A stretch of DNA of 64,000 nucleotides. Origin: a bacterium. Its GTDB lineage: Bacteria; SAR324; NAC60-12. Location: the NCBI GenBank assembly GCA_965233585.1, contig CBDDTI010000746.1, positions 384,001-448,000 on the forward strand, in the 5' to 3' direction. The position numbers were made by a program, and so were the translations under genes. Positions 12,479 through 23,449 of this stretch are shown here, in pieces (position 1 is the stretch's first letter; every line of letters starts with the position of its first letter). A model generated the notes under the pieces. The model was not told the origin of the DNA. It searched no databases and worked only from the letters and a program-made list of their open reading frames with translations.

Positions 12479-12696
12479 CAGAGTCTTTAATCTTTTGGAA
12501 AGCACAAAATGCTTGACAACCTCACGTTTATCATTCACACTACCCAACCAATTCAGAGTGAATTTTTGAGTTGCTTGCTAGTATTCTTTTTTCTTTTGAA
12601 TTGAGAATGCTGATTCTGCAAGGATTGGATTGCTAAAGAATCTTAGTCGCCCAAGCCTTGTTCTTTTTATCAACCTTATTATTTTGGAGATATTTT

Positions 12697-13941
12697 ATGA
12701 TGAAAAAAATAGTGAAAAGAAGTCTTGGAACAGCTTTGGCTGTTGGAATGAGCTTGTCAGCAAATTTGGCGTTTGGTGGTAAGTTGGTGATTAATTCAGA
12801 TACGTCAGACCCTGCCCCTAAAAAGGCGATGCAATACCTTGTGAGTGAGTTTGAAAAAGCTCACCCTGACATTGAAGTCAAATGGAATGTGTTTGACCAT
12901 GAAGGGTTTAAAACTTCTATCAGAAACTTTTTAAGTGCTGATGCACCAGACATTGTGACTTGGTATGCAGGAAACCGAATGTTACCTTTTGTCAAAGCAG
13001 AATTGTTTGCACCGATTGACGATGTTTGGGACAAAAACAATTTTCACGAATTGCTAGCTTCTTCTGCAGATTCTTCTACTGTCAATGGTAAAAAGTATGC
13101 TGTGCCTTATTCTTACTATCAATGGGGAGTTTATTATCGCAAGGATATTTTCAATAAGCACAACATTCCAGTACCTAAAACTTGGGCAGATTTTATCCAA
13201 GCAGGTGAAGTCTTAAAAAGTAAGGGTATTACACCAATTACGATTGGAACAAAATTTTTGTGGACAGCCGCAGGTGTCTTTGACTACATCAATTTGAGAA
13301 CTAATGGTTATGAATTTCACATGGACTTAACCAATGGGAAAGTAGCTTGGACTGACAAACGTGTGAAAGACACGATGAACAACTGGAAAGAATTGATTGA
13401 TAGAGAGTTTTTTATCAAAAACCACACAACTTACAGTTGGCAAGAAGCTCTTTCTCCAATGGTCAAAGGAGAAGCAGCAATGTATGTGATGGGTAATTTT
13501 GCTGTTGCCCCTTTAAGAGAAGCTGGCTTGAATGACGACCAAATCGGGTTTTTTCAATTCCCCATCATCAACGGAAAAGTTTCATTGGCAGAGGAAGCAC
13601 CTACCGAAACGATGCACATGCCTATGCGTGCTAAAAACAAAGAAGAAGCTAGAAAGTTCCTTGCTTTTCTGGGACGTGCTGAAGTTCAAGCTGGAATGAA
13701 TCAAATTTTAGGGCAACTGCCTATCAATAAAAATTCAGAAGTCGCTGATGACCCATTCATCAAAGCTGGCTTTCAAATGCTTTCCAACACCAAAGGAGGG
13801 ATTGCACAGTTTTTTGACCGTGATGCCCCTGCTAATATGGCAAAACCTGCAATGGAAGGGTTTCAACAATTTATGGTCAAACCTGAAAGAGTGGACGGCA
13901 TTTTGAAAAAATTAGACAAAGCCCGCAAACGAGTTTATTGA
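12697..13941 (+). CDS. Sugar ABC transporter substrate-binding protein
   Basis: Signal peptide and SBP family 1 features; first gene of the sugar operon; GGAGA RBS before ATG 12697. Confidence 0.9.
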   Translation: MMKKIVKRSLGTALAVGMSLSANLAFGGKLVINSDTSDPAPKKAMQYLVSEFEKAHPDIEVKWNVFDHEGFKTSIRNFLSADAPDIVTWYAGNRMLPFVKAELFAPIDDVWDKNNFHELLASSADSSTVNGKKYAVPYSYYQWGVYYRKDIFNKHNIPVPKTWADFIQAGEVLKSKGITPITIGTKFLWTAAGVFDYINLRTNGYEFHMDLTNGKVAWTDKRVKDTMNNWKELIDREFFIKNHTTYSWQEALSPMVKGEAAMYVMGNFAVAPLREAGLNDDQIGFFQFPIINGKVSLAEEAPTETMHMPMRAKNKEEARKFLAFLGRAEVQAGMNQILGQLPINKNSEVADDPFIKAGFQMLSNTKGGIAQFFDRDAPANMAKPAMEGFQQFMVKPERVDGILKKLDKARKRVY

Positions 13942-13961
13942 TTGTTGGATTTCGTTTCAAT

Positions 13962-14001
13962 AAGGCAACCTTCAAAGCCTTTGACCTTTGGAGGTTGCCT
14001 T
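13962..14001 (+). terminator. Intercistronic stem-loop after the SBP gene
   Basis: AAGGCAACCTTCAAAG...CTTTGGAGGTTGCCTT inverted repeat. Confidence 0.65.
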
Positions 14002-14023
14002 CTAATCATAGTTATCAACTCCT

Positions 14024-14914
14024 ATGCTCTCCTCCTCCTTTTTCAGGAAAAACCGCCTAAAAATATCTCCATGGCTCTTTCTAGCCCCTGCCTGTTTGAT
14101 GTTTTTGGCTTACGTGATTTTTCCCATTTTTGAATCTATCACAATCTCTTTTTACAAATGGGACGGTTTAGGTGAAAAAACGTATATTGGGCTGTCAAAT
14201 TACGTAGAATTGTTTGAAGATGAAGATTTTTATACTTCACTCAAAAACAATGTCATCTGGCTTGTTCTCTTCCTACTCGCTCCCCCTCTTGGCTTGTTCA
14301 TCGCCTTATTTTTAAACCAAAATGTTTATGGGATTCGGTTTTACAAATCTTTGTTTTTCTTCCCTTTTGTGATTTCTCAAGTTGTAGTGGGATTGGTGTT
14401 TTCGTGGTTTTATGACCCATCTAACGGCATCTTGAATTTGATTTTAAATGCTTTAGGATTTGAGACTATTTCTATTTTGGGTAATGAAGACTTGGTAACT
14501 TATGGAATTGTTGCGGCTGGTCTTTGGCCCCAAATTGCTTATTGCATGATTCTTTATCTCACAGGGTTAAATGCTGTCAATCCTGAACAAATAGAGGCGG
14601 GTAGATTAGATAATGCAAAGGGTTGGAGAATGCTTTGGTACATTATCCTGCCCCAGCTCAAACCTGCAACTTTCATCGCAGTTGTTGTCACAGTGATTGG
14701 TGCTTTAAGGTCTTTTGATTTAATTTCTATTATGACCGATGGTGGACCTTGGGGGTCTAGTCGGGTCTTGGCTTTTTTCATGTATGAACAAGCCTTGTCA
14801 GAATATGGATTCCGTATGGGATATGGCGCTGCAATCGCCGTCATTCTCTTCTTAATCATGTTGGTTTATATAGTTGGCTTCTTAGCTAAAATGTACCAAG
14901 ATGAAAAATCTTAA
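14024..14914 (+). CDS. Sugar ABC permease 1
   Basis: About 6 TM segments; EAGRLDNA EAA-loop variant. Confidence 0.92.
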   Translation: MLSSSFFRKNRLKISPWLFLAPACLMFLAYVIFPIFESITISFYKWDGLGEKTYIGLSNYVELFEDEDFYTSLKNNVIWLVLFLLAPPLGLFIALFLNQNVYGIRFYKSLFFFPFVISQVVVGLVFSWFYDPSNGILNLILNALGFETISILGNEDLVTYGIVAAGLWPQIAYCMILYLTGLNAVNPEQIEAGRLDNAKGWRMLWYIILPQLKPATFIAVVVTVIGALRSFDLISIMTDGGPWGSSRVLAFFMYEQALSEYGFRMGYGAAIAVILFLIMLVYIVGFLAKMYQDEKS

Positions 14915-14947
14915 AAATATGCAGAATTAATCAATGCCTTTTTAAAT

Positions 14948-15799
14948 ATGTTCCCTACTCCCATTCAAAGAACCTCACTTTTCACACAAAAGACTTACAA
15001 AATTATTCTACCAATGACCTTGTTGATTTGGTTGCTTCCCTTGATTGCCGTCATGCTGACGTCTATTCGTTCATCGGGAGACATCATTTCAGGCAATTAT
15101 TGGGGGATTCCAACGACTTTCAACTTGGTTGAAAATTACACAGCAATTTTTGAAAGTACTCCGATTGGAAGGTACATACTCAATAGTTTTTATGTCACTA
15201 TCCCAACAGTTTTGGGGGCAGTGGCTCTTTCGTCTTTAAGTGGTTTTGCGTTGGGGGTGTATCGTTTTAAGGGCAATTTATTCATTTTCTTCATGTTTAT
15301 TGCAGGCAATTTTATTCCTTTCCAAATTTTGATGGTACCTGTCCGCGACATGAGTGTCAGTTTGGGATTGTATGACACCTTTGCTGGTTTGATTTTATTT
15401 CATATTGCGTTTCAAACAGGATTTTGCACTTTATTCATGCGTAATTTTATCAAGGCGTTACCTTTTGAATTGATAGAAGCGGCACGTGTTGAAGGTGTGA
15501 GTGAACTCAGGATTTTTGGGTTTATCGTATTGCCTTTGATGCGACCAGCCATCGCCGCTCTTTCTGTCTTGATTTTTACTTTTATTTGGAATGATTACTT
15601 CTGGGCAGTGACTTTGACTCAAGGTTCAGATACTCAACCGATTACTGCAGGTCTTCATTCTTTGAATGGGCAGTGGCTTGCAAATTGGCATTTAGTCTCT
15701 GCGGGTTCTATCGTTGCCGCATTGCCTCCTGTTTTAATGTTCTTCTTAATGCAAAAACATTTTATTGCAGGGCTGACTCTTGGAGCAGTGAAATCTTAA
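14948..15799 (+). CDS. Sugar ABC permease 2
   Basis: ELIEAARVEG loop, IWNDYFW. Confidence 0.92.
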   Translation: MFPTPIQRTSLFTQKTYKIILPMTLLIWLLPLIAVMLTSIRSSGDIISGNYWGIPTTFNLVENYTAIFESTPIGRYILNSFYVTIPTVLGAVALSSLSGFALGVYRFKGNLFIFFMFIAGNFIPFQILMVPVRDMSVSLGLYDTFAGLILFHIAFQTGFCTLFMRNFIKALPFELIEAARVEGVSELRIFGFIVLPLMRPAIAALSVLIFTFIWNDYFWAVTLTQGSDTQPITAGLHSLNGQWLANWHLVSAGSIVAALPPVLMFFLMQKHFIAGLTLGAVKS

Positions 15800-15811
15800 A
15801 CTTTAAAAAAT

Positions 15812-15935
15812 ATGAAAAAATTTGGTCTTGTCCAACCACAACATCATCAAAAACACGTTCAGCAGTTCATGCGCCAAGGTGATCTTGATTTCCAAGACTT
15901 TCGCCATAGCTTTTATAAAAGTGTTGAAAATGGAC
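15812..15935 (+). pseudogene. Internally deleted beta-galactosidase remnant
   Basis: VQPQ fused to HQKHVQQFMRQGDLDFQDFRHSFYKSV; matches IQPQ and YQKHAQQFMRQGEPDFQDFHHSLYKSV of the gene at 16735. Confidence 0.8.
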
Positions 15936-16005
15936 ATTCACACATTTACAGTGTAAACCTTTTATATAATTATAATTTTCATAAAGATACAGAAAGGAAA
16001 ATCCT

Positions 16006-16563
16006 ATGTTTACATACCATGAAATAGATACGGCACCAGAAGAATCAAAGGCATTGATGGAAAAGTCTGCTGCTGCTTTTGGCAGAGTCCCCGACATGCA
16101 CAAAATCTTAGCCGAAGCCCCTGCAGCATATGAAGCCTATTTAACCACGATGGAGTTATTTGGCAACAAAAGTACTTTTACCCCCACGGAACAGCAAGTA
16201 GTGTTTATGACCATGAACTTTGAAAATAAGTGTCATTACTGCATACCCGGGCATACGGTATTGATGAAAATGCAAAATATATCTGACGATATTATTGAAG
16301 CATTGCGAGAAGGTACCCCCCTAGCCGATGCGAAACTGGAAGCCTTGCGGACATACACTAGGGAAATGTTTAACACCCGTGGTCGTATTGGTGAAGACGG
16401 ATTAAAAGCGTTTCTGGATGCAGGTTACACCCAACGGCAATCCTTGGAAGTGTTGGTGGGTATCGCTGCAAAAACAATTTCTAACTTCACCAATGCCCTT
16501 GCTGATACCCGCCTAAATGAGGTGGTATCAAAATACGCTTGGACACACCCAGACGACAGATAA
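16006..16563 (+). CDS. AhpD/carboxymuconolactone decarboxylase family protein
   Basis: ENKCHYCIPGH CxxC motif; DAKLEALR, FLDAGYT, KTISNFTN. Confidence 0.9.
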   Translation: MFTYHEIDTAPEESKALMEKSAAAFGRVPDMHKILAEAPAAYEAYLTTMELFGNKSTFTPTEQQVVFMTMNFENKCHYCIPGHTVLMKMQNISDDIIEALREGTPLADAKLEALRTYTREMFNTRGRIGEDGLKAFLDAGYTQRQSLEVLVGIAAKTISNFTNALADTRLNEVVSKYAWTHPDDR

Positions 16564-16580
16564 CATTTTAGTTATTTTTT

Positions 16581-16623
16581 ATAAAAAGCCTTATTTATGC
16601 ACATGACAAATAAGGCTTTTTAT
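16581..16623. terminator. Rho-independent (likely bidirectional) terminator
   Basis: ATAAAAAGCCTTATTT...AAATAAGGCTTTTTAT followed by Ts. Confidence 0.75.
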
Positions 16624-16734
16624 TTTTCAATAAGTTGAAATGACAACGCTATACCATTTTTACTGTTGTCAGTATGTGAATGAGTTGATATGACGGAAAA
16701 GATTGGTATGACAAAACAATAAAAAAGCCTTGAC

Positions 16735-18690
16735 ATGACTGAACGAATAAAAAAATATGTTCCTATCCAACCACAGCTAGGGGTTTGTTACTACCCTGAA
16801 CACTGCTCTTCTCAGTTGTGGCAATCTGATGCCCAACGCATGAAAGAACTCGGTTTGCAATGGGTGAGAATTGGAGAGTTTGCATGGAGTAGGCTTGAAC
16901 CCCAAAAGCAGAAGTTTCAGTTGGAATGGCTTGACGAAGTCATTGAGATTTTAGGGAATGCCAATTTAAAGGTGATTCTAGGGACTCCTACTGCCACTCC
17001 CCCAAAATGGATTCTTGAAGAATATCCAGAAATGTTAGCAAAAGACAGTCATGGTCAAGTCAGAAAATTTGGTTCAAGAAGACATTACTGTTTTTCGCAT
17101 GAAGGTTATCAAAAAGAGTGCAAACGCATTGTAGAAATACTTGCCAAACGTTATGGCAAGAATCCTCATATTTCAGCATGGCAAATTGACAATGAGTTTG
17201 GTTGCCATGACACAACCCTGTCTTACAGTGATTCTGCATTGCATGCTTTTAGACTTTGGTTACAAGAACGTTATGAGGCCATTGAGAAACTGAATGAATC
17301 TTGGGGGAATGTGTTTTGGTCTATGGAATATCAAAATTTTCAGCAAGTTGAGCTGCCTCATCAAACAACCACAGAGGCAAACCCTGCCCATTGGCTAGAT
17401 TTTAGAAGATTCTCATCAGACCAAGTCATTCGTTTTAATCGTCTGCAAGTTGAAATTTTGAAGCAACACACGCAAGCCCCAATTTTGCATAACTTCATGG
17501 GGAAAGAGCTGGGATTTGATCATTTTAAAATAGGCAAAGACTTAGACATTGCCAGTTGGGATAGCTATCCGCTCGGCTTTCTATCAACATTTTTTGGACG
17601 ACAAACACGCTATCAAAAACATGCTCAACAATTCATGCGACAAGGAGAACCTGATTTTCAAGACTTTCACCATAGTCTTTACAAAAGTGTTGGAAGCGGA
17701 AGATGTTGGGTCATGGAACAACAGCCCGGTCCTGTGAATTGGGCATCGCACAATCCAATTCCCTTGCCGGGCATGGTGCGTTTGTGGACAATAGAAGCCT
17801 TTGTCAGTGGTGTAGAAGTGGTGAGTTACTTCCGTTGGAGACAAGCAAGATTCGCTCAAGAACAAATGCACACAGGGCTTTTGTATTTTGACAATACCTC
17901 CTCTCCCGTTTTGGAAGAAATCAAACAGGTCACCCAAGACCTTCAAACCTTAAAAACGATTGAGCCTCGTCAAAATCCTGTGGCAATCATCTTTGACTAT
18001 GAATCAGCGTGGGCGTGGCAAACTCAACCACAAGGAGCAAATTTTGACTACTTTAGCTTAGCCTTTGAGTTTTACAAAGCACTCAGGTCTTTGGGAGTCA
18101 ATGCCGATTTGGTTTCTACCGAATGCACAAATTTAAAAGATTACAAAATGCTCATTGTCCCTGCCTTGATGCAGCTTAAAAAAAACTTTAAACAATCTTT
18201 GTTAGCGTACGATGGTATTCTGCTCATGGGACCACGGACAGGTTCTAAAGATGAGTGTTTTCACACAGCACAAATGCCTTTAAATGATTTTGGAATTGAT
18301 GCTGAAATTGGCTGGGTAGAAAGTTGGGGTGATGAGGCTAACCTTCCTTTGCAAAATGGTGGTCAAGTGGTGAAATGGTTGGAACATATCAGAGTCGGTC
18401 ACCAGTTGAAGCCAGAACAAATCATAGAGACTACACAGTGCCAAAAGCCTGTTTTATTGGGAAGTCAAAATCGGTTTTACCTCACAGGTTGGTTAGATGA
18501 AAAAGCCCTCAAACGCATTTTAAAAGAGTTGTCTCAAAACATTGGAATCCCCTTGTATGATTTGCCAGAAGGGTTAAGAATGACAGAAACAGCCACGCAT
18601 CGCTTCCTTTTCAATTACAACGCAACTCCTATAACATACCAACAGCACACCATTCCATCTGCTGACTTTCTCATACAACCTCTTGACTGA
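16735..18690 (+). CDS. GH42 beta-galactosidase
   Basis: GVCYYPEH, RIGEFAWS, GTPTATPPKW, WQIDNE (acid/base), VMEQQPG (nucleophile), AQEQMH. Confidence 0.95.
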   Translation: MTERIKKYVPIQPQLGVCYYPEHCSSQLWQSDAQRMKELGLQWVRIGEFAWSRLEPQKQKFQLEWLDEVIEILGNANLKVILGTPTATPPKWILEEYPEMLAKDSHGQVRKFGSRRHYCFSHEGYQKECKRIVEILAKRYGKNPHISAWQIDNEFGCHDTTLSYSDSALHAFRLWLQERYEAIEKLNESWGNVFWSMEYQNFQQVELPHQTTTEANPAHWLDFRRFSSDQVIRFNRLQVEILKQHTQAPILHNFMGKELGFDHFKIGKDLDIASWDSYPLGFLSTFFGRQTRYQKHAQQFMRQGEPDFQDFHHSLYKSVGSGRCWVMEQQPGPVNWASHNPIPLPGMVRLWTIEAFVSGVEVVSYFRWRQARFAQEQMHTGLLYFDNTSSPVLEEIKQVTQDLQTLKTIEPRQNPVAIIFDYESAWAWQTQPQGANFDYFSLAFEFYKALRSLGVNADLVSTECTNLKDYKMLIVPALMQLKKNFKQSLLAYDGILLMGPRTGSKDECFHTAQMPLNDFGIDAEIGWVESWGDEANLPLQNGGQVVKWLEHIRVGHQLKPEQIIETTQCQKPVLLGSQNRFYLTGWLDEKALKRILKELSQNIGIPLYDLPEGLRMTETATHRFLFNYNATPITYQQHTIPSADFLIQPLD

Positions 18691-18702
18691 ACACCTCTTC
18701 TG

Positions 18703-19773
18703 ATGAAACCAAAAATGTCTGGAATACAGTTAAATCATCTTTTTAAGAATTTTGGAAAAACAGCAGTGATTCAGGGGGTTGAGATTGAGATTGAGGAGGG
18801 AGAATTTTGTGTTTTTGTCGGTCCTTCTGGCTGTGGAAAATCTACCTTATTGCGAATGATTGCAGGTTTGGAAGAGATAGACGATGGGGATATTTTGATT
18901 GACGGCTTAAAAGTCAATGATGTTGAACCAGCACAGCGGGGAGTTGCAATGGTTTTTCAATCCTATGCTCTTTACCCACATATGAACGTTGAGCAAAACA
19001 TGGGATTTGGTTTAAAAATGAACAAAGTCCCTGCAAAAGAAATCTCTCAAAAAGTGCAACGTGCCGCTGAAATCTTGAGGCTGACACCGTATCTGAAACG
19101 GAAACCCAAAGCACTCTCTGGTGGACAGAAGCAACGTGTGGCGATTGGTCGTGCCATTGTCAGAGGTTCTAAAGTCTTTTTGTTTGACGAACCCTTGTCT
19201 AATCTTGATGCAGAGTTGCGCGTGGAGATGCGGACAGAATTAGCCAGATTGCACAATGAACTCCAAATCACCATGATTTATGTGACCCATGACCAAGTGG
19301 AAGCCATGACGTTAGCAGATAAAATCGTGGTCTTGAGAGGCGGGAAGGTAGAACAAACTGGCTCTCCAATGGAGTTGTACAAAAATCCAGACAATCAGTT
19401 TGTTGCAGGCTTCATTGGCTCACCTTCAATGAACTTCATTAAAGCCTTTCAATATCTTCAAGGGGTTACAATTCCTGCCTTCTCCAATCAAGAAATCACA
19501 ATGAACCTCTCCCAGTGCGAAGAAAAACGGGAAGTGACCTTTGGAATGAGACCAGAACATTTAAGCCTGACCGAAGGCAATGACTGGACTGTAGAATTGA
19601 TAGAAAGATTAGGCGGTGTGGGTTATGTTTATTTGGTTTCCAAAACTCAGGAACGAATTACTGTGGAAATCAAAGGAGAAAGTGATGTGCAAAAAGGGCA
19701 AAAAGTGGGAATACTCCTGAATCAAGAGCATGCTTTTCTCTTTGACCCAAAGACTGAAGCACGAATCCGATAA
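18703..19773 (+). CDS. Sugar ABC ATP-binding protein (MalK/UgpC family)
   Basis: [33 protein letters not shown]. Confidence 0.95.
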   Translation: MKPKMSGIQLNHLFKNFGKTAVIQGVEIEIEEGEFCVFVGPSGCGKSTLLRMIAGLEEIDDGDILIDGLKVNDVEPAQRGVAMVFQSYALYPHMNVEQNMGFGLKMNKVPAKEISQKVQRAAEILRLTPYLKRKPKALSGGQKQRVAIGRAIVRGSKVFLFDEPLSNLDAELRVEMRTELARLHNELQITMIYVTHDQVEAMTLADKIVVLRGGKVEQTGSPMELYKNPDNQFVAGFIGSPSMNFIKAFQYLQGVTIPAFSNQEITMNLSQCEEKREVTFGMRPEHLSLTEGNDWTVELIERLGGVGYVYLVSKTQERITVEIKGESDVQKGQKVGILLNQEHAFLFDPKTEARIR

Positions 19774-19856
19774 AATAAAATTATTTCCTTCAAATATCCT
19801 TCACTTAGTTTGATTGAAACTTCAATAAACTCTGTTCCTAAGAGTGAGCTTTGACA

Positions 19857-20714
19857 ATGGTTAAGTCCAATATTGTTCATACACTTGATGTTTTAAAATT
19901 CCTTGAACGTCTCAAAGGGGAGAGTCTATTTGATTTAATCATCATAGACCCGCCATATAACATTGGTCAAGATTTTGGAAACAATCAGGATCATCTATCC
20001 ATCAATGACTATGTGGATTGGAGTCTCAAATATCTTAAAGAATGCTTTAGGCTGATTAAGCCATCTGTTCCTATTTATGTTTATGGTTATCCTGAAATTT
20101 TGGCTCATATTGCAATCCATTATCCAATCAGTCACCAGCGATGGCTTGTTTGGCATTATACTAATAAAACAGTGCCTTCCAGTCGGTTTTGGCAACGAAG
20201 CCATGAAAGTCTTTTGTGTTTGTGGAAAGATGATAAACCTAAACTCATGGTAGATCGCATCAGAGAAGACTATACAGAAAATTTTTTAAAGAATGCTGCT
20301 GGTAAAGTTAGAAAGAGCAAAGACTGTAGATACAGTAAGGGACGTTCGCAAACGATCTATCAAGCACATCAAAACGGAGCATTGCCGAGAGATGTCATCA
20401 AAATTCCTGCTCTGGCAGGTGGTTCAGGTGTAGAAAGAGTGTCCTATTGTAAAAGCTGTAACAAGATTGTTTTAGGGCAAGAGAGGCATCAGCATACCGA
20501 TTGCGAAACAATCAGACATCCAACTCAAAAACCAACTAAATTAACAGAAAAGCTGATCAAAGGTAGCAATCCTCATAATCTATTGATCCCCTTTGCAGGA
20601 ACGGGATCGGAGTGTGTTGTTGCTAAAAAACATGGAGTCACCTTCTATGCAACTGAGATTAACCCTGAATATGTCAACATGGCAAATCAATGGATACAAA
20701 CAATATGGATATGA
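19857..20714 (+). CDS. Beta-class N6A/N4C DNA methyltransferase
   Basis: DPPYN near the N-terminus; HPTQKP and PFAGTG near the C-terminus. Confidence 0.92.
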   Translation: MVKSNIVHTLDVLKFLERLKGESLFDLIIIDPPYNIGQDFGNNQDHLSINDYVDWSLKYLKECFRLIKPSVPIYVYGYPEILAHIAIHYPISHQRWLVWHYTNKTVPSSRFWQRSHESLLCLWKDDKPKLMVDRIREDYTENFLKNAAGKVRKSKDCRYSKGRSQTIYQAHQNGALPRDVIKIPALAGGSGVERVSYCKSCNKIVLGQERHQHTDCETIRHPTQKPTKLTEKLIKGSNPHNLLIPFAGTGSECVVAKKHGVTFYATEINPEYVNMANQWIQTIWI

Positions 20715-21388
20715 ACAAGCTAGAAGAATTTAATCAATTTTTATCAAAAATTGACTTGAAAAAGTATAGGGATAAATATTCAAAAATAAAACTGGTTGAG
20801 TTAGATTTACCAAGAGACATTCAAGCCATTCCATTTTTATACAAACATTATTGGGAGGAGTTTAAGTTACTTGATTATGATGATTTTTATCAAAATTATA
20901 TGACTTCACTAGAAAGAAAGTTAGAAGAATTTAGACGAAGGCAAATGTTTAGTGAAGAAACTTTTTATAGAGGGCTACCAGCTAGAATATACAGAACTTG
21001 GGCTTCTTTGCTCACACAAATTCAAGGTGGTTATGTTGCTCAATCTATCTATCCACGAGTAGAAATGTCAGCGGAATTAGATTATAACGGCATTGATATG
21101 AGAATATATCCTGAAGGGAATCCTGAAAGTTATATCAACATACAGATAAAGAAAGAAACTGTCAGTAGGGAGGTCAGGACTGCATGGGTTGGACTCAAAA
21201 GAGGTGAACAAATCACTAATATTACTTACGAAGTCACACCTTATTCGAGTTTGACTCCAACAGGCAAAGAGTGTATGCCTTATAAAAGGTGGCAAGAACG
21301 TTGGAAAAACAAATTAATCAAACTAGATAATGGATTTATTATTTTTTTACCAGAAATGTTTTATATAGATTACATCAAAACTGCTTAG
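20690..21388 (+). CDS. TaqI-family type II restriction endonuclease
   Basis: Colinear with recalled TaqI motifs: FL..IDL..Y..KY..IK.VE.DLPR, LY.HYW, L.ARIYRT, ELD..GID, IQIKKET, L.NGFIIF. Confidence 0.85.
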   Translation: MDTNNMDMNKLEEFNQFLSKIDLKKYRDKYSKIKLVELDLPRDIQAIPFLYKHYWEEFKLLDYDDFYQNYMTSLERKLEEFRRRQMFSEETFYRGLPARIYRTWASLLTQIQGGYVAQSIYPRVEMSAELDYNGIDMRIYPEGNPESYINIQIKKETVSREVRTAWVGLKRGEQITNITYEVTPYSSLTPTGKECMPYKRWQERWKNKLIKLDNGFIIFLPEMFYIDYIKTA

Positions 21389-21468
21389 CCTCTCTCATTC
21401 TTTTTTGAATTTTTATAAAAATAGTTGTTCCTCACCACCCTCAATCATAAATCATACGAAGGTCAGTC

Positions 21469-22575
21469 ATGGCAACACTTCAATTAAAAAACATTCACAA
21501 ATCGTTTCAAGGCACTGATGTCATTCGTGGCGTAGATTTAGACGTCAAAGACAAGGAATTTGTTGTCTTTGTAGGACCTTCAGGTTGTGGGAAATCCACG
21601 CTGTTGCGTATGATTGCAGGTTTGGAAGATGCCACCAGCGGAGAAATTTGGATTGATGGCGAGTGTGTCAATGAACTTGCCCCCATCAAACGTAAGATTG
21701 CTATGGTGTTTCAATCATACGCACTTTATCCGCACATGACCGTCTTTGACAACATTGCTTTTCCACTAAACATTGAAAAACGACCAAAGTCAGAGATTAA
21801 GGGAAAAGTAGAAGAAGTGGCAGAATCTTTAAAACTGACAGACCGCCTTGCACACAAGCCCGGTCAACTTTCAGGGGGACAACGTCAAAGAGTGGCGATT
21901 GGAAGAGCGATTGTCCGCAAACCTAAAATTTTCTTGTTTGATGAACCTCTTTCTAACTTAGATGCCGCTTTGCGAATTGACATGCGTCTTGAGTTGCAGG
22001 AACTCCATGAACGTCTGCAATCTACCATGATTTACGTGACCCATGACCAAGTAGAAGCCATGACGATGGCAGACCAAATTGTTGTCCTGAAAGATGGCAT
22101 TGTGGAGCAATCTGGCTCTTCTATGGAACTTTATCATCAACCTGCAAACCAGTTTGTTGCCACCTTCATTGGAGCGCCAGCTATGAATTTGATAGAAGGC
22201 ACTTGTACAGAAGTCAAGTCAAACTCTGTCAAAATCCGTTTAGATGACATAGGAGAATGGGATTTGCCTGTGGATTCGCAAAAGGTACAAGTTGGAGAAA
22301 AGCTGACTTTAGGGATTCGCCCTGAAAATGCAGGACATTCATCAGGAGAATGTCAGCTTCAGTTCAATGTTGGAATTTTAGAACGTCTGGGGTCGCACAC
22401 GGTTTGTCATGGGACACTTGGAAAGACGACCCATAAATTTTGTGCAGTGTTAGAAACCAGCGATCGTGTCAAAACAGGAGAGGACATGAACATTTCCTTT
22501 AAACCAAGTGATGCTCATCTTTTCAACAAATCGGGACAATCTTTGACACGATTGGAAGTTCCAATTTCTTTGTGA
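21469..22575 (+). CDS. Second sugar ABC ATP-binding protein
   Basis: Walker A/B and signature motifs; C-terminal TOBE-like region. Confidence 0.95.
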
Positions 22576-22591
22576 AAAACTTCACATGACC

Positions 22592-23449
22592 TCAAAATAA
22601 GTCTTCAATCACTTGCATCGTGTCAAGAGCATGTTGCAGTGCGTTGGGATGAGTCAGCAATTTTTTCCAAGTTTTTTTTTCTACTTCGTTGATTTGATAC
22701 TTGCCTGAAAGGCTTACAGACAATTCACCATACTGACCTTTTAACCCATCATCAAGATTGTATTGAATCTCTAATATTTTCATTTTGCTGTCAAAATATT
22801 TTTTTGCCACTTCTTCAAAAAAGGGCTTCACGGCTGCATAATGTGTGCAAGCAAGCAAGCCATAGATCACCTGACCATGCGTTGACTGATTGAAGCCTGT
22901 CATTTTCTGCTTGGTCAACTGCATTGCCTCATCAATCTTTGCTTTGATTTTTGTTGAATCTCCTGCCGATATACAGCTTGCTAAACCTTGACATGCAATA
23001 GAAATGACCCTTTCTTCTGTGATTCCAAATGACTCTAACATGCTTGGGTAAATCCCTTCATTTGCGGTGGTTTCTGTGGAAAAAAACACAGCAAGAGCAT
23101 CAGAGTTTTCTTGTAATCTAGGAAAAATGTGTTTCGTCCCTTCTTCAACAACACTCCAAATGATTTTTTGATTAAATTGCAGTTGGACATGCGGGAGTAA
23201 AGCGGCAAGAGAGTTACATGCTAGCAAGATGCGTGTTGGCTGATAACGTGCAGCGACAGCATTGAGGGCATTTTCAAAGGTTTGAACTTGAACGTGGCGT
23301 GGCATCTGGTTGTATCCTTGTTCGTGTGAGGGAGCAAGATTGACATACTGGACGCATGCCCCTGCGTTTAGGTTTTGTAATTGTGTCATCACACTTGCTG
23401 TAATGAGCAACCCTCCCCAACCTGAATCTATGATGAGAACTTGTGGCAT
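22592..23449 (-). CDS. murI: Glutamate racemase-like protein
   Basis: IDSGWGGL, LACNS and LACTHY catalytic Cys motifs. Confidence 0.75.
   Translation of the reverse strand: MPQVLIIDSGWGGLLITASVMTQLQNLNAGACVQYVNLAPSHEQGYNQMPRHVQVQTFENALNAVAARYQPTRILLACNSLAALLPHVQLQFNQKIIWSVVEEGTKHIFPRLQENSDALAVFFSTETTANEGIYPSMLESFGITEERVISIACQGLASCISAGDSTKIKAKIDEAMQLTKQKMTGFNQSTHGQVIYGLLACTHYAAVKPFFEEVAKKYFDSKMKILEIQYNLDDGLKGQYGELSVSLSGKYQINEVEKKTWKKLLTHPNALQHALDTMQVIEDLF

Follow-up and report, generated by a model that had tools for sequence, protein, structure and literature searches.

Near-absence of TCGA from the genome of a SAR324-lineage bacterium that carries a TaqI-family restriction-modification gene pair

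Introduction

TaqI, the prototype of its family of restriction endonucleases, comes from Thermus aquaticus and cuts T^CGA; M.TaqI is a methyltransferase of the gamma class. Host genomes reportedly avoid the recognition sites of type II enzymes, as Gelfand and Koonin are said to have described in 1997. This report concerns a gene pair, predicted to encode a TaqI-family endonuclease and a beta-class DNA methyltransferase, and the near-absence of TCGA from the genome that carries it. The pair lies on a stretch of 64,000 bases (positions 384,001 to 448,000, forward strand, of contig CBDDTI010000746.1 in assembly GCA_965233585.1; GTDB lineage Bacteria; SAR324; NAC60-12), hereafter the window, to which coordinates refer unless a contig is named. 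The beta-class N6_N4 methyltransferase of the pair differs in class from M.TaqI. The endonuclease is shorter than TaqI (232 amino acids against 263; the latter length from the accessible part of PMC5587805) and matches the family model over 218 of 229 positions, and the TCGA depletion seen around members of the family agrees with the target of the prototype.

Avoidance of restriction sites has been surveyed by Rusinov et al. 2015 (PMC4687349), who, in the accessible part of their paper, tie it to the residence time and the self-toxicity of orthodox type II systems, find it, at a threshold of 0.78, in roughly half of 1774 cases, and report up to 100% avoidance for long-resident systems. The system described here resembles those cases in its independent enzymes, its chromosomal location and a palindromic 4-bp site that lies far below 0.78; it goes beyond them, as far as they are described in that part of the paper, with two 4-mers at an observed/expected ratio (O/E) of 0.04 and 12 of 53 evaluable 6-bp palindromes below 0.3 in one 3 Mb genome. 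The literature on SAR324 restriction-modification and on the TaqI family with N6_N4_Mtase, as searched here, yielded no description of the pair or of the loss of TCGA. Site avoidance is a known phenomenon, of which this host is an extreme new instance; what the host adds to the known model is the extreme value, a view at codon level, and a TaqI-family endonuclease with a beta-class partner.

Depletion of TCGA in the window and in the genome

TCGA occurs once in the window, at 21245-21248. The expectation is 146 ± 11 copies from dinucleotide-preserving shuffles (100 of 100 shuffles held at least one); base composition predicts 233 and a second-order Markov model 84. A first-pass annotation, made from the sequence alone, had reported this single copy against many expected, and had described its neighbour words as common; both statements are confirmed by counting (TCGT 143, TCGC 103, TCGG 63, ACGA 215, CCGA 87, GCGA 88, TTGA 656, TCAA 721). 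It had also placed the copy inside the endonuclease gene, and the copy does sit in that open reading frame (ORF; 20690-21388), although the interval given with the claim, 19857-21388, spans the methyltransferase gene as well. GGCC is likewise rare, with 5 copies against 114.5 expected, and several 6-mers are nearly absent (GAATTC 1; ATGCAT, GAGCTC and GTGCAC 0 each). Logan contigs from four runs of one study matched all or much of 19000-23000 without a single difference, the TCGA site included; these runs are possibly the source data of the assembly, and hence not independent of it.

14526, 17277, 33645, 50418, 52807: copies of GGCC in the window

The assembly is a mixed bin of 12.0 Mb in 747 contigs. 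Depletion is confined to seven contigs (C747, C746, C745, C295, C729, C723 and C109; TCGA O/E 0.02-0.18), which total 2.99 Mb and have a coding density of about 0.8-0.9, and the genes for ribosomal protein L2, RecA and both 16S genes all lie on these contigs; the remaining ~9 Mb consists of short contigs with normal TCGA, many of them of low coding density. Contig C745 (ending at 620,666) changes abruptly at ~581 kb to normal densities of TCGA, GGCC, CCWGG and GAATTC and holds only 2 ORFs of 150 amino acids or more beyond that point; its last 40 kb is probably a chimeric assembly join, and a reading of this tail as a recent TCGA-bearing island was rejected on the strength of the abrupt change and the near-lack of ORFs. 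The true genome size is about 2.95 Mb. Among named relatives of its RuvB, the nearest are proteins of 'SAR324 cluster bacterium' with about 67-71% identity; a further RuvB is 90% identical. Because the public assembly is a mixed bin, statistics over the whole of it mask the signal and would wrongly refute the depletion; the whole-assembly TCGA O/E of 0.89 was discarded as misleading after counts were made for each contig. Three contigs (C352, C102, C313) have CpG at 0.02-0.06 of expectation and a eukaryote-like look.

The 2.95 Mb true genome contains 155 copies of TCGA against 3862 expected. The resulting O/E of 0.040 supplies the Markov-corrected genome-wide value that the first-pass annotation had proposed as a check, and lies below the 0.78 used for avoidance (with at least 15 expected sites), the expectation models here being second-order or maximal-order Markov, not Karlin's, so that values are not strictly comparable with those of Rusinov et al. 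The 6-mers that contain TCGA occur near expectation given their 5-mers (O/E 0.8-1.1), which identifies the bare 4-mer as the avoided unit. About 15 of the residual sites fall within 10 kb of the start of two contigs, where the two ribosomal RNA (rRNA) operons lie, and others form a few local patches.

Synonymous codon choice

TCGA is missing from all three reading-frame contexts in coding DNA, as counted over 1521 long ORFs (a slash marks the codon boundary):

TCG/A..: observed 10, expected 649
.TC/GA.: observed 42, expected 4554
..T/CGA: observed 29, expected 909

In each context the word is avoided by synonymous choice. Before Asp or Glu, the share of C-ending codons for Phe, Ile, Val and Leu is only 0.2-0.9%, compared with 25-50% in other positions; after a T-ending codon, CGA accounts for 0.35% of Arg codons, compared with 12-16% otherwise, its place being taken mostly by CGT and CGC; and TCG makes up 0.07% of Ser codons before a codon starting with A, against 3.9-8.2% elsewhere, with TCC or AGC as replacements. 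The word xTT/GAx, which replaces xTC/GAx, has an O/E of 1.29, and TTGA/TCAA one of 1.02. The dipeptides concerned occur at O/E 0.89-1.17, the matching Asn and Lys dipeptides are not enriched, and the coding density of the depleted genome is about 0.86. Synonymous choice together with normal dipeptides argues that selection acts on the DNA word.

Other words leave similar traces in the coding regions of the true genome: CGG after C-ending codons is reduced to 0.37% (CCGG) and CGC after G-ending codons to 2.9% (GCGC). Codon junctions of the form T/A are broadly avoided in coding regions (.TT/AA. at O/E 0.44).

The restriction-modification gene pair

The pair comprises the following features:

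19857-20714, + strand: DNA methyltransferase gene, 285 amino acids from ATG at 19857 (Pfam PF01555, N6_N4_Mtase)
20690-21388, + strand: TaqI-family type II endonuclease gene, 232 amino acids from ATG at 20690 (Pfam PF09573, RE_TaqI)
20690-20714, + strand: 25 bases shared by the end of the methyltransferase gene and the start of the endonuclease gene (10 bases if the latter begins at the second ATG)

Membership of the endonuclease in the TaqI family, as the first-pass annotation had it, is borne out by the PF09573 match (E 6e-37; 127.7 bits against a cut-off of 26.1; profile positions 1-218 of 229), which is the single match to this family in a search of the whole genome. The public gene call starts at ATG 20705 and gives 227 amino acids. 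Homologues of the endonuclease, among them one 80% identical to it, number 457, with PF09573 in all 120 of those listed, and columns D126, D131, Q147, K149 and K150 are invariant across 24 aligned homologues. A search of solved structures with the profile of this 24-sequence alignment gave 0 matches; NCBIfam has no family for the endonuclease and gave sub-threshold matches only for the methyltransferase.

The methyltransferase gene, which has an in-frame TTG at 19851, matches PF01555 (E 4e-32; 112 bits, cut-off 26.7). Its product carries DPPY at residue 33 and then FAGTG at residue 248, the order of the beta class, and its closest solved structures are the adenine methyltransferases M.MboIIA and M.RsrI, so that it is assigned to the beta class and not to the M.TaqI type. 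An M.TaqI-like methyltransferase was rejected as a candidate here: Pfam at E<=0.1 gives PF01555 plus two sub-threshold families only. Judged from its motifs and its solved relatives, the enzyme probably modifies the adenine of TCGA. PADLOC labels the products MTase_II and REase_II (3.6e-32), respectively. The two genes, both on the + strand, are separate and adjacent, as an orthodox type IIP system requires, and their overlap would suit translational coupling.

Related genomes and orthologous loci

A panel of 40 relatives (24 of the same family and 16 of the same order) contained no RE_TaqI match. Among 20 same-family relatives, sampled by their 20-kb recA regions, TCGA is at expectation (1333 copies against 1336) and GGCC at 0.94. 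Three other relatives (G029, G015, G005) likewise have no TCGA avoidance. Genes of PF01555 are numerous in some same-order genomes (24 in G029, and 22 and 21 in G027 and G032, two genomes considered further below), and 13 of the 40 relatives have none at E<=1e-10.

The gene pair itself recurs elsewhere. Alignment of 24 homologues led to 80 orthologous loci (L049-L128), spanning Gammaproteobacteria, Patescibacteria, small archaea and others, of which 74 are evaluable for TCGA O/E. A homologue of the methyltransferase (44-70% identity) lies within 1.5 kb of the endonuclease gene in 77 of the 80; the genes are in tandem in the closest, mostly proteobacterial loci and convergent in the distant ones, mostly of Patescibacteria and small archaea. 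When the 80 loci are pooled, no other of the 136 strand-symmetric 4-mers is as depleted as TCGA (O/E 0.46, median 0.35 over 74 loci; GATC 0.67, GGCC 0.67, AGCT 0.95). Its O/E is below 0.5 in 50 of the 74 loci and below 0.2 in ten, and one other well-sampled locus is comparable to the extreme value of the host (L053; TCGA 3 against 51). As far as can be read from these loci, the pair is a widespread putative cassette linked with TCGA avoidance. This family-wide link fits the first-pass proposal that TCGA is the target of the endonuclease, and supports that specificity for the host's own enzyme, short of proving it. Across Proteobacteria, Patescibacteria and small archaea, TaqI-family endonucleases thus occur with a beta-class partner instead of one of the M.TaqI type, a combination that would merit an entry in the enzyme catalogues, if it has none already.

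Other avoided words and further restriction-modification genes

TCGA is one among more than twenty restriction-type words purged from this genome. In the true genome, GGCC has an O/E of 0.047 (249 copies against 5298 expected), GATC of 0.31, GCGC of 0.37 and CCGG of 0.47; among 5-mers, CCAGG is at 0.12 and CATCC at 0.23; and among 6-mers, GAGCTC, GTGCAC and GAGCAC are at 0.03-0.06, ATGCAT at 0.04, TCTAGA at 0.08, GAATTC at 0.089, GTATAC at 0.10 and GATATC at 0.11. The O/E is below 0.3 for 12 of the 53 evaluable 6-bp palindromes and below 0.78 for 28.

The genome has 26 matches to PF01555 (23 at E<=1e-10), all on true contigs and a few with stop codons; among the 25 methyltransferase ORFs inspected for motifs, SPPY or SPPF occurs in 14 and DPPY or DPPF in nine. 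No real C5-methyltransferase was found in the true genome, the five weak fragments recovered all lying on foreign contigs. Protection of GGCC would hence need N4-methylcytosine. The host resembles Helicobacter pylori and the filamentous cyanobacteria in combining a small genome with dozens of methyltransferase genes and numerous avoided palindromes; it differs from them in that the ~23 methyltransferase genes found are all of PF01555, with no C5-cytosine methyltransferase among them.

A Pfam scan that covered 106 of the 188 ORFs neighbouring methyltransferase genes returned endonuclease-type matches to EcoRI (6e-115), CfrBI, BglII-like, BsaWI, the NgoFVII C-terminal domain and a DpnII fragment, together with an HNH nuclease and three type III modification subunits; no family specific for GGCC was recognised among the genes scanned. 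Several of these families coincide with an avoided word, taking as their targets what we assume to be those of the prototypes: EcoRI with GAATTC (0.089), CfrBI with CCWWGG (0.22-0.43), BsaWI with ACCGGT (0.40) and DpnII with GATC (0.31).

Origin of the depletion

The reading preferred here, to which we give a probability of about 0.8, is that the two genes form an orthodox type II pair and that long residence, with selection against self-cutting, purged TCGA by synonymous change. The beta-class, probably adenine-N6 methyltransferase would protect TCGA and the TaqI-family endonuclease would cut it where unmethylated; with the two enzymes acting independently, any lapse in methylation would expose the chromosome to cutting, and over a long residence selection would strip nearly every dispensable TCGA from the genome. 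Coding DNA would then follow three rules (no TC-ending codon before Asp or Glu, no TCG before A, and no CGA after T), survivors would remain mainly at constrained sequence such as rRNA or in a few local clusters, and the same process would have been repeated for many other resident systems in the lineage. Words that the host strongly avoids occur twice in the cassette, where random genome segments average 1.45 (P=0.37); the lack of an excess fits long residence. The long cohabitation with selection against self-cutting that had been put forward in the first-pass annotation agrees with the synonymous purge, with the normal TCGA of 20 of 20 sampled family relatives, and with the published lifespan model as set out in the accessible part of PMC4687349.

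Several observations weigh against this reading. The G+C content of the cassette is 0.355 against 0.402 ± 0.034 for the genome (P=0.09), and it has six GATC against 1.75 in random segments (P=0.03); the cassette may be younger than parts of the purge. Two single-contig genomes of the same order (1.6-1.7 Mb) are depleted of TCGA, G027 at O/E 0.25 (26 copies against 103 in 80 kb) and G032 at 0.16 (30 against 193 in 80 kb; GCGC is also at 0.13), and neither has an RE_TaqI match or a close homologue of the methyltransferase of the window. Equal depletion in relatives without the system had been named in the first-pass annotation as a point against it; the sampled family relatives show none. G027 and G032 imply that TCGA avoidance in the order is not bound to the TaqI family by itself, and that a TCGA system of another kind or an earlier date could have played a part in the host genome. 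Furthermore, nine of the 74 gene-pair loci show no TCGA depletion (O/E above 0.7), and two endonuclease-like genes of the host have no avoided word to go with them (AGATCT 0.73, GCSGC 1.12).

The same observations lend themselves to a purge that is older than the cassette or independent of it, caused by a lost or non-homologous TCGA system or by repeated exposure, with the present pair arriving later. This would account for G027 and G032, for a cassette that, unlike its host, has a lower G+C content and a normal GATC density and that is wedged into a sugar operon in the manner of an insertion, and it would fit avoidance as the trace of lost systems, as treated by Rusinov et al. in the accessible part of PMC4687349. 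It is less easily squared with a cassette as free of avoided words as random segments, with TCGA as the top depleted word across loci that share the gene pair, or with the 20 same-family relatives that show no depletion at all; no candidate for a second TCGA system was identified in the genome, which counts for little given that most endonucleases have no Pfam family. Taken together, an older or independent purge seems unlikely, though it deserves to be kept in mind.

Far less credit can be given to two further explanations. One, raised in the first-pass annotation, is that methylated TCGA decayed to TTGA or TCAA through modification-driven erosion. The excess of xTT/GAx (O/E 1.29) is indeed the product of a C-to-T change; but this change is also the main synonymous option for Phe and Ile, and so expected under selection, and the other frames turn to CGT or CGC for CGA and to TCC or AGC for TCG, which are no products of transition. 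The N6/N4 type of the methyltransferase with its DPPY motif points to adenine, no C5 enzyme was found in the true genome, TTGA/TCAA stand at 1.02, and the rRNA genes retain TCGA; erosion is accordingly very improbable. The other, that miscalls at methylated sites or effects of assembly or binning erased TCGA from the consensus, might be suspected in a poor 12 Mb bin that includes about 9 Mb of foreign sequence and a chimeric contig. Miscalls would strike all frames and turn CGA into TGA stops or Asp and Glu into Asn and Lys, and the coding density and dipeptides are normal, so that base-calling errors are excluded as the source of the codon pattern; the rRNA genes have kept TCGA, more than 20 words are affected, several of them matching resident enzymes, and the Logan contigs of the four runs (one study, possibly the source data) agree with the assembly. 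An artefact can hardly be entertained. The preferred explanation remains long residence of the pair with selection against self-cutting.

The TCGA site within the endonuclease gene

The only TCGA of the window has the following position:

21245-21248: TCGA formed by codon 186, TCG (Ser), and the first base of codon 187, AGT (Ser); both codons belong to the variable endonuclease loop 'TPYSSLTP'

The site falls in the last third of the endonuclease ORF, 140 bases short of its stop codon and outside any promoter, and TCGA was found at the aligned codon pair in none of 77 orthologues. Since it is not conserved in these orthologues, it is best read as a chance occurrence, a leftover or newly arisen synonymous site without a special role. 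The coincidence is mild, as 3% of random 699-base segments of the genome hold a TCGA, and it was noticed post hoc.

The first-pass annotation had suggested a control site, at which the endonuclease would limit itself by cutting or which would govern its expression through methylation. Such a role has in its favour that the chance of the sole site in 64 kb falling in a 699-base gene is ~1%, that methylation-controlled promoters exist for some systems, e.g. CfrBI, and that orthologous endonuclease genes have kept more TCGA than their surroundings: over the 80 loci, 100 copies against 141.8 expected (O/E 0.71), compared with 0.36 for the methyltransferase genes and 0.46 for the flanks, in a comparison that ignores relatedness among the loci. 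The positions at which TCGA recurs in orthologues are Phe-Asp and Phe-Glu codon pairs of distant orthologues only, at 41-45% identity; since all of these belong to one related clade, common ancestry is the probable reason. In control of the CfrBI type the recognition site lies in a promoter or regulatory region, where its methylation is sensed. The present site is in the 3' third of an ORF, is unconserved, has no promoter signal above chance and occupies a freely changeable Ser codon of a variable loop, and the suggestion of a control site is thus not upheld; we consider a function for it very doubtful.

Implications

The host offers a natural example of the force that a resident restriction enzyme would exert on a genome, with one 4-base word at 4% of its expectation and with codon-pair usage visibly rewritten, C-ending codons for Phe, Ile, Val and Leu being nearly banned before Asp and Glu. 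Word avoidance might serve as a predictor of specificity in an uncultured lineage, for which TCGA, GGCC, GWGCWC, ATGCAT, GAATTC and CCWGG are the candidates put forward here, and anyone doing genetics in SAR324-like bacteria can take from the avoided words which sites to strip from incoming DNA. More speculatively, the SAR324-type lineage might be among the most restriction-proofed of cellular genomes, with an arsenal of N4-methylcytosine and N6-methyladenine only and with TaqI-family genes that keep their own target, a conjecture that we hold to be rather improbable; if it were true, retention of TCGA in endonuclease genes could be a built-in self-limiting feature of a selfish pair.

Gene neighbourhood and additional observations

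The pair is located between two MalK-like ATPase genes on the same strand:

12658-19773, + strand: sugar-uptake operon upstream of the pair (Pfam scan)
21469-22575, + strand: second MalK-like ABC ATPase gene, downstream (Pfam ABC_tran 1.7e-36, OB_MalK)

The upstream operon comprises genes for a solute-binding protein, two permeases, a GH42 beta-galactosidase and a MalK-like ABC ATPase (18703-19773), and one unassigned ORF. A scan of 19600-21600 for promoters and terminators gave nothing beyond chance, with 5 promoter-like sites against 6.1 in shuffles.

Restriction-modification cassettes were also seen within or beside other ABC-transporter operons (permease, ATPase, FecCD) at loci L132, L141, L142 and L143, in addition to 18703-22575 of the window; this siting could be due to chance in a transporter-rich genome or to a preferred context for insertion. 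Two complete cassettes stand side by side at C745:206,500-210,700 (L142:4025-8176), the first with a CfrBI-family endonuclease and an SPPY methyltransferase with HEAT repeats in its N-terminal region, and the second with an EcoRI-family endonuclease (6e-115) and a DPPY methyltransferase of the beta class. Finally, at C747:109,472-112,024 (L130:9472-12024), a type III modification subunit is directly followed by a protein of 851 residues with TIR and STAND NTPase domains, likely a further defence gene.

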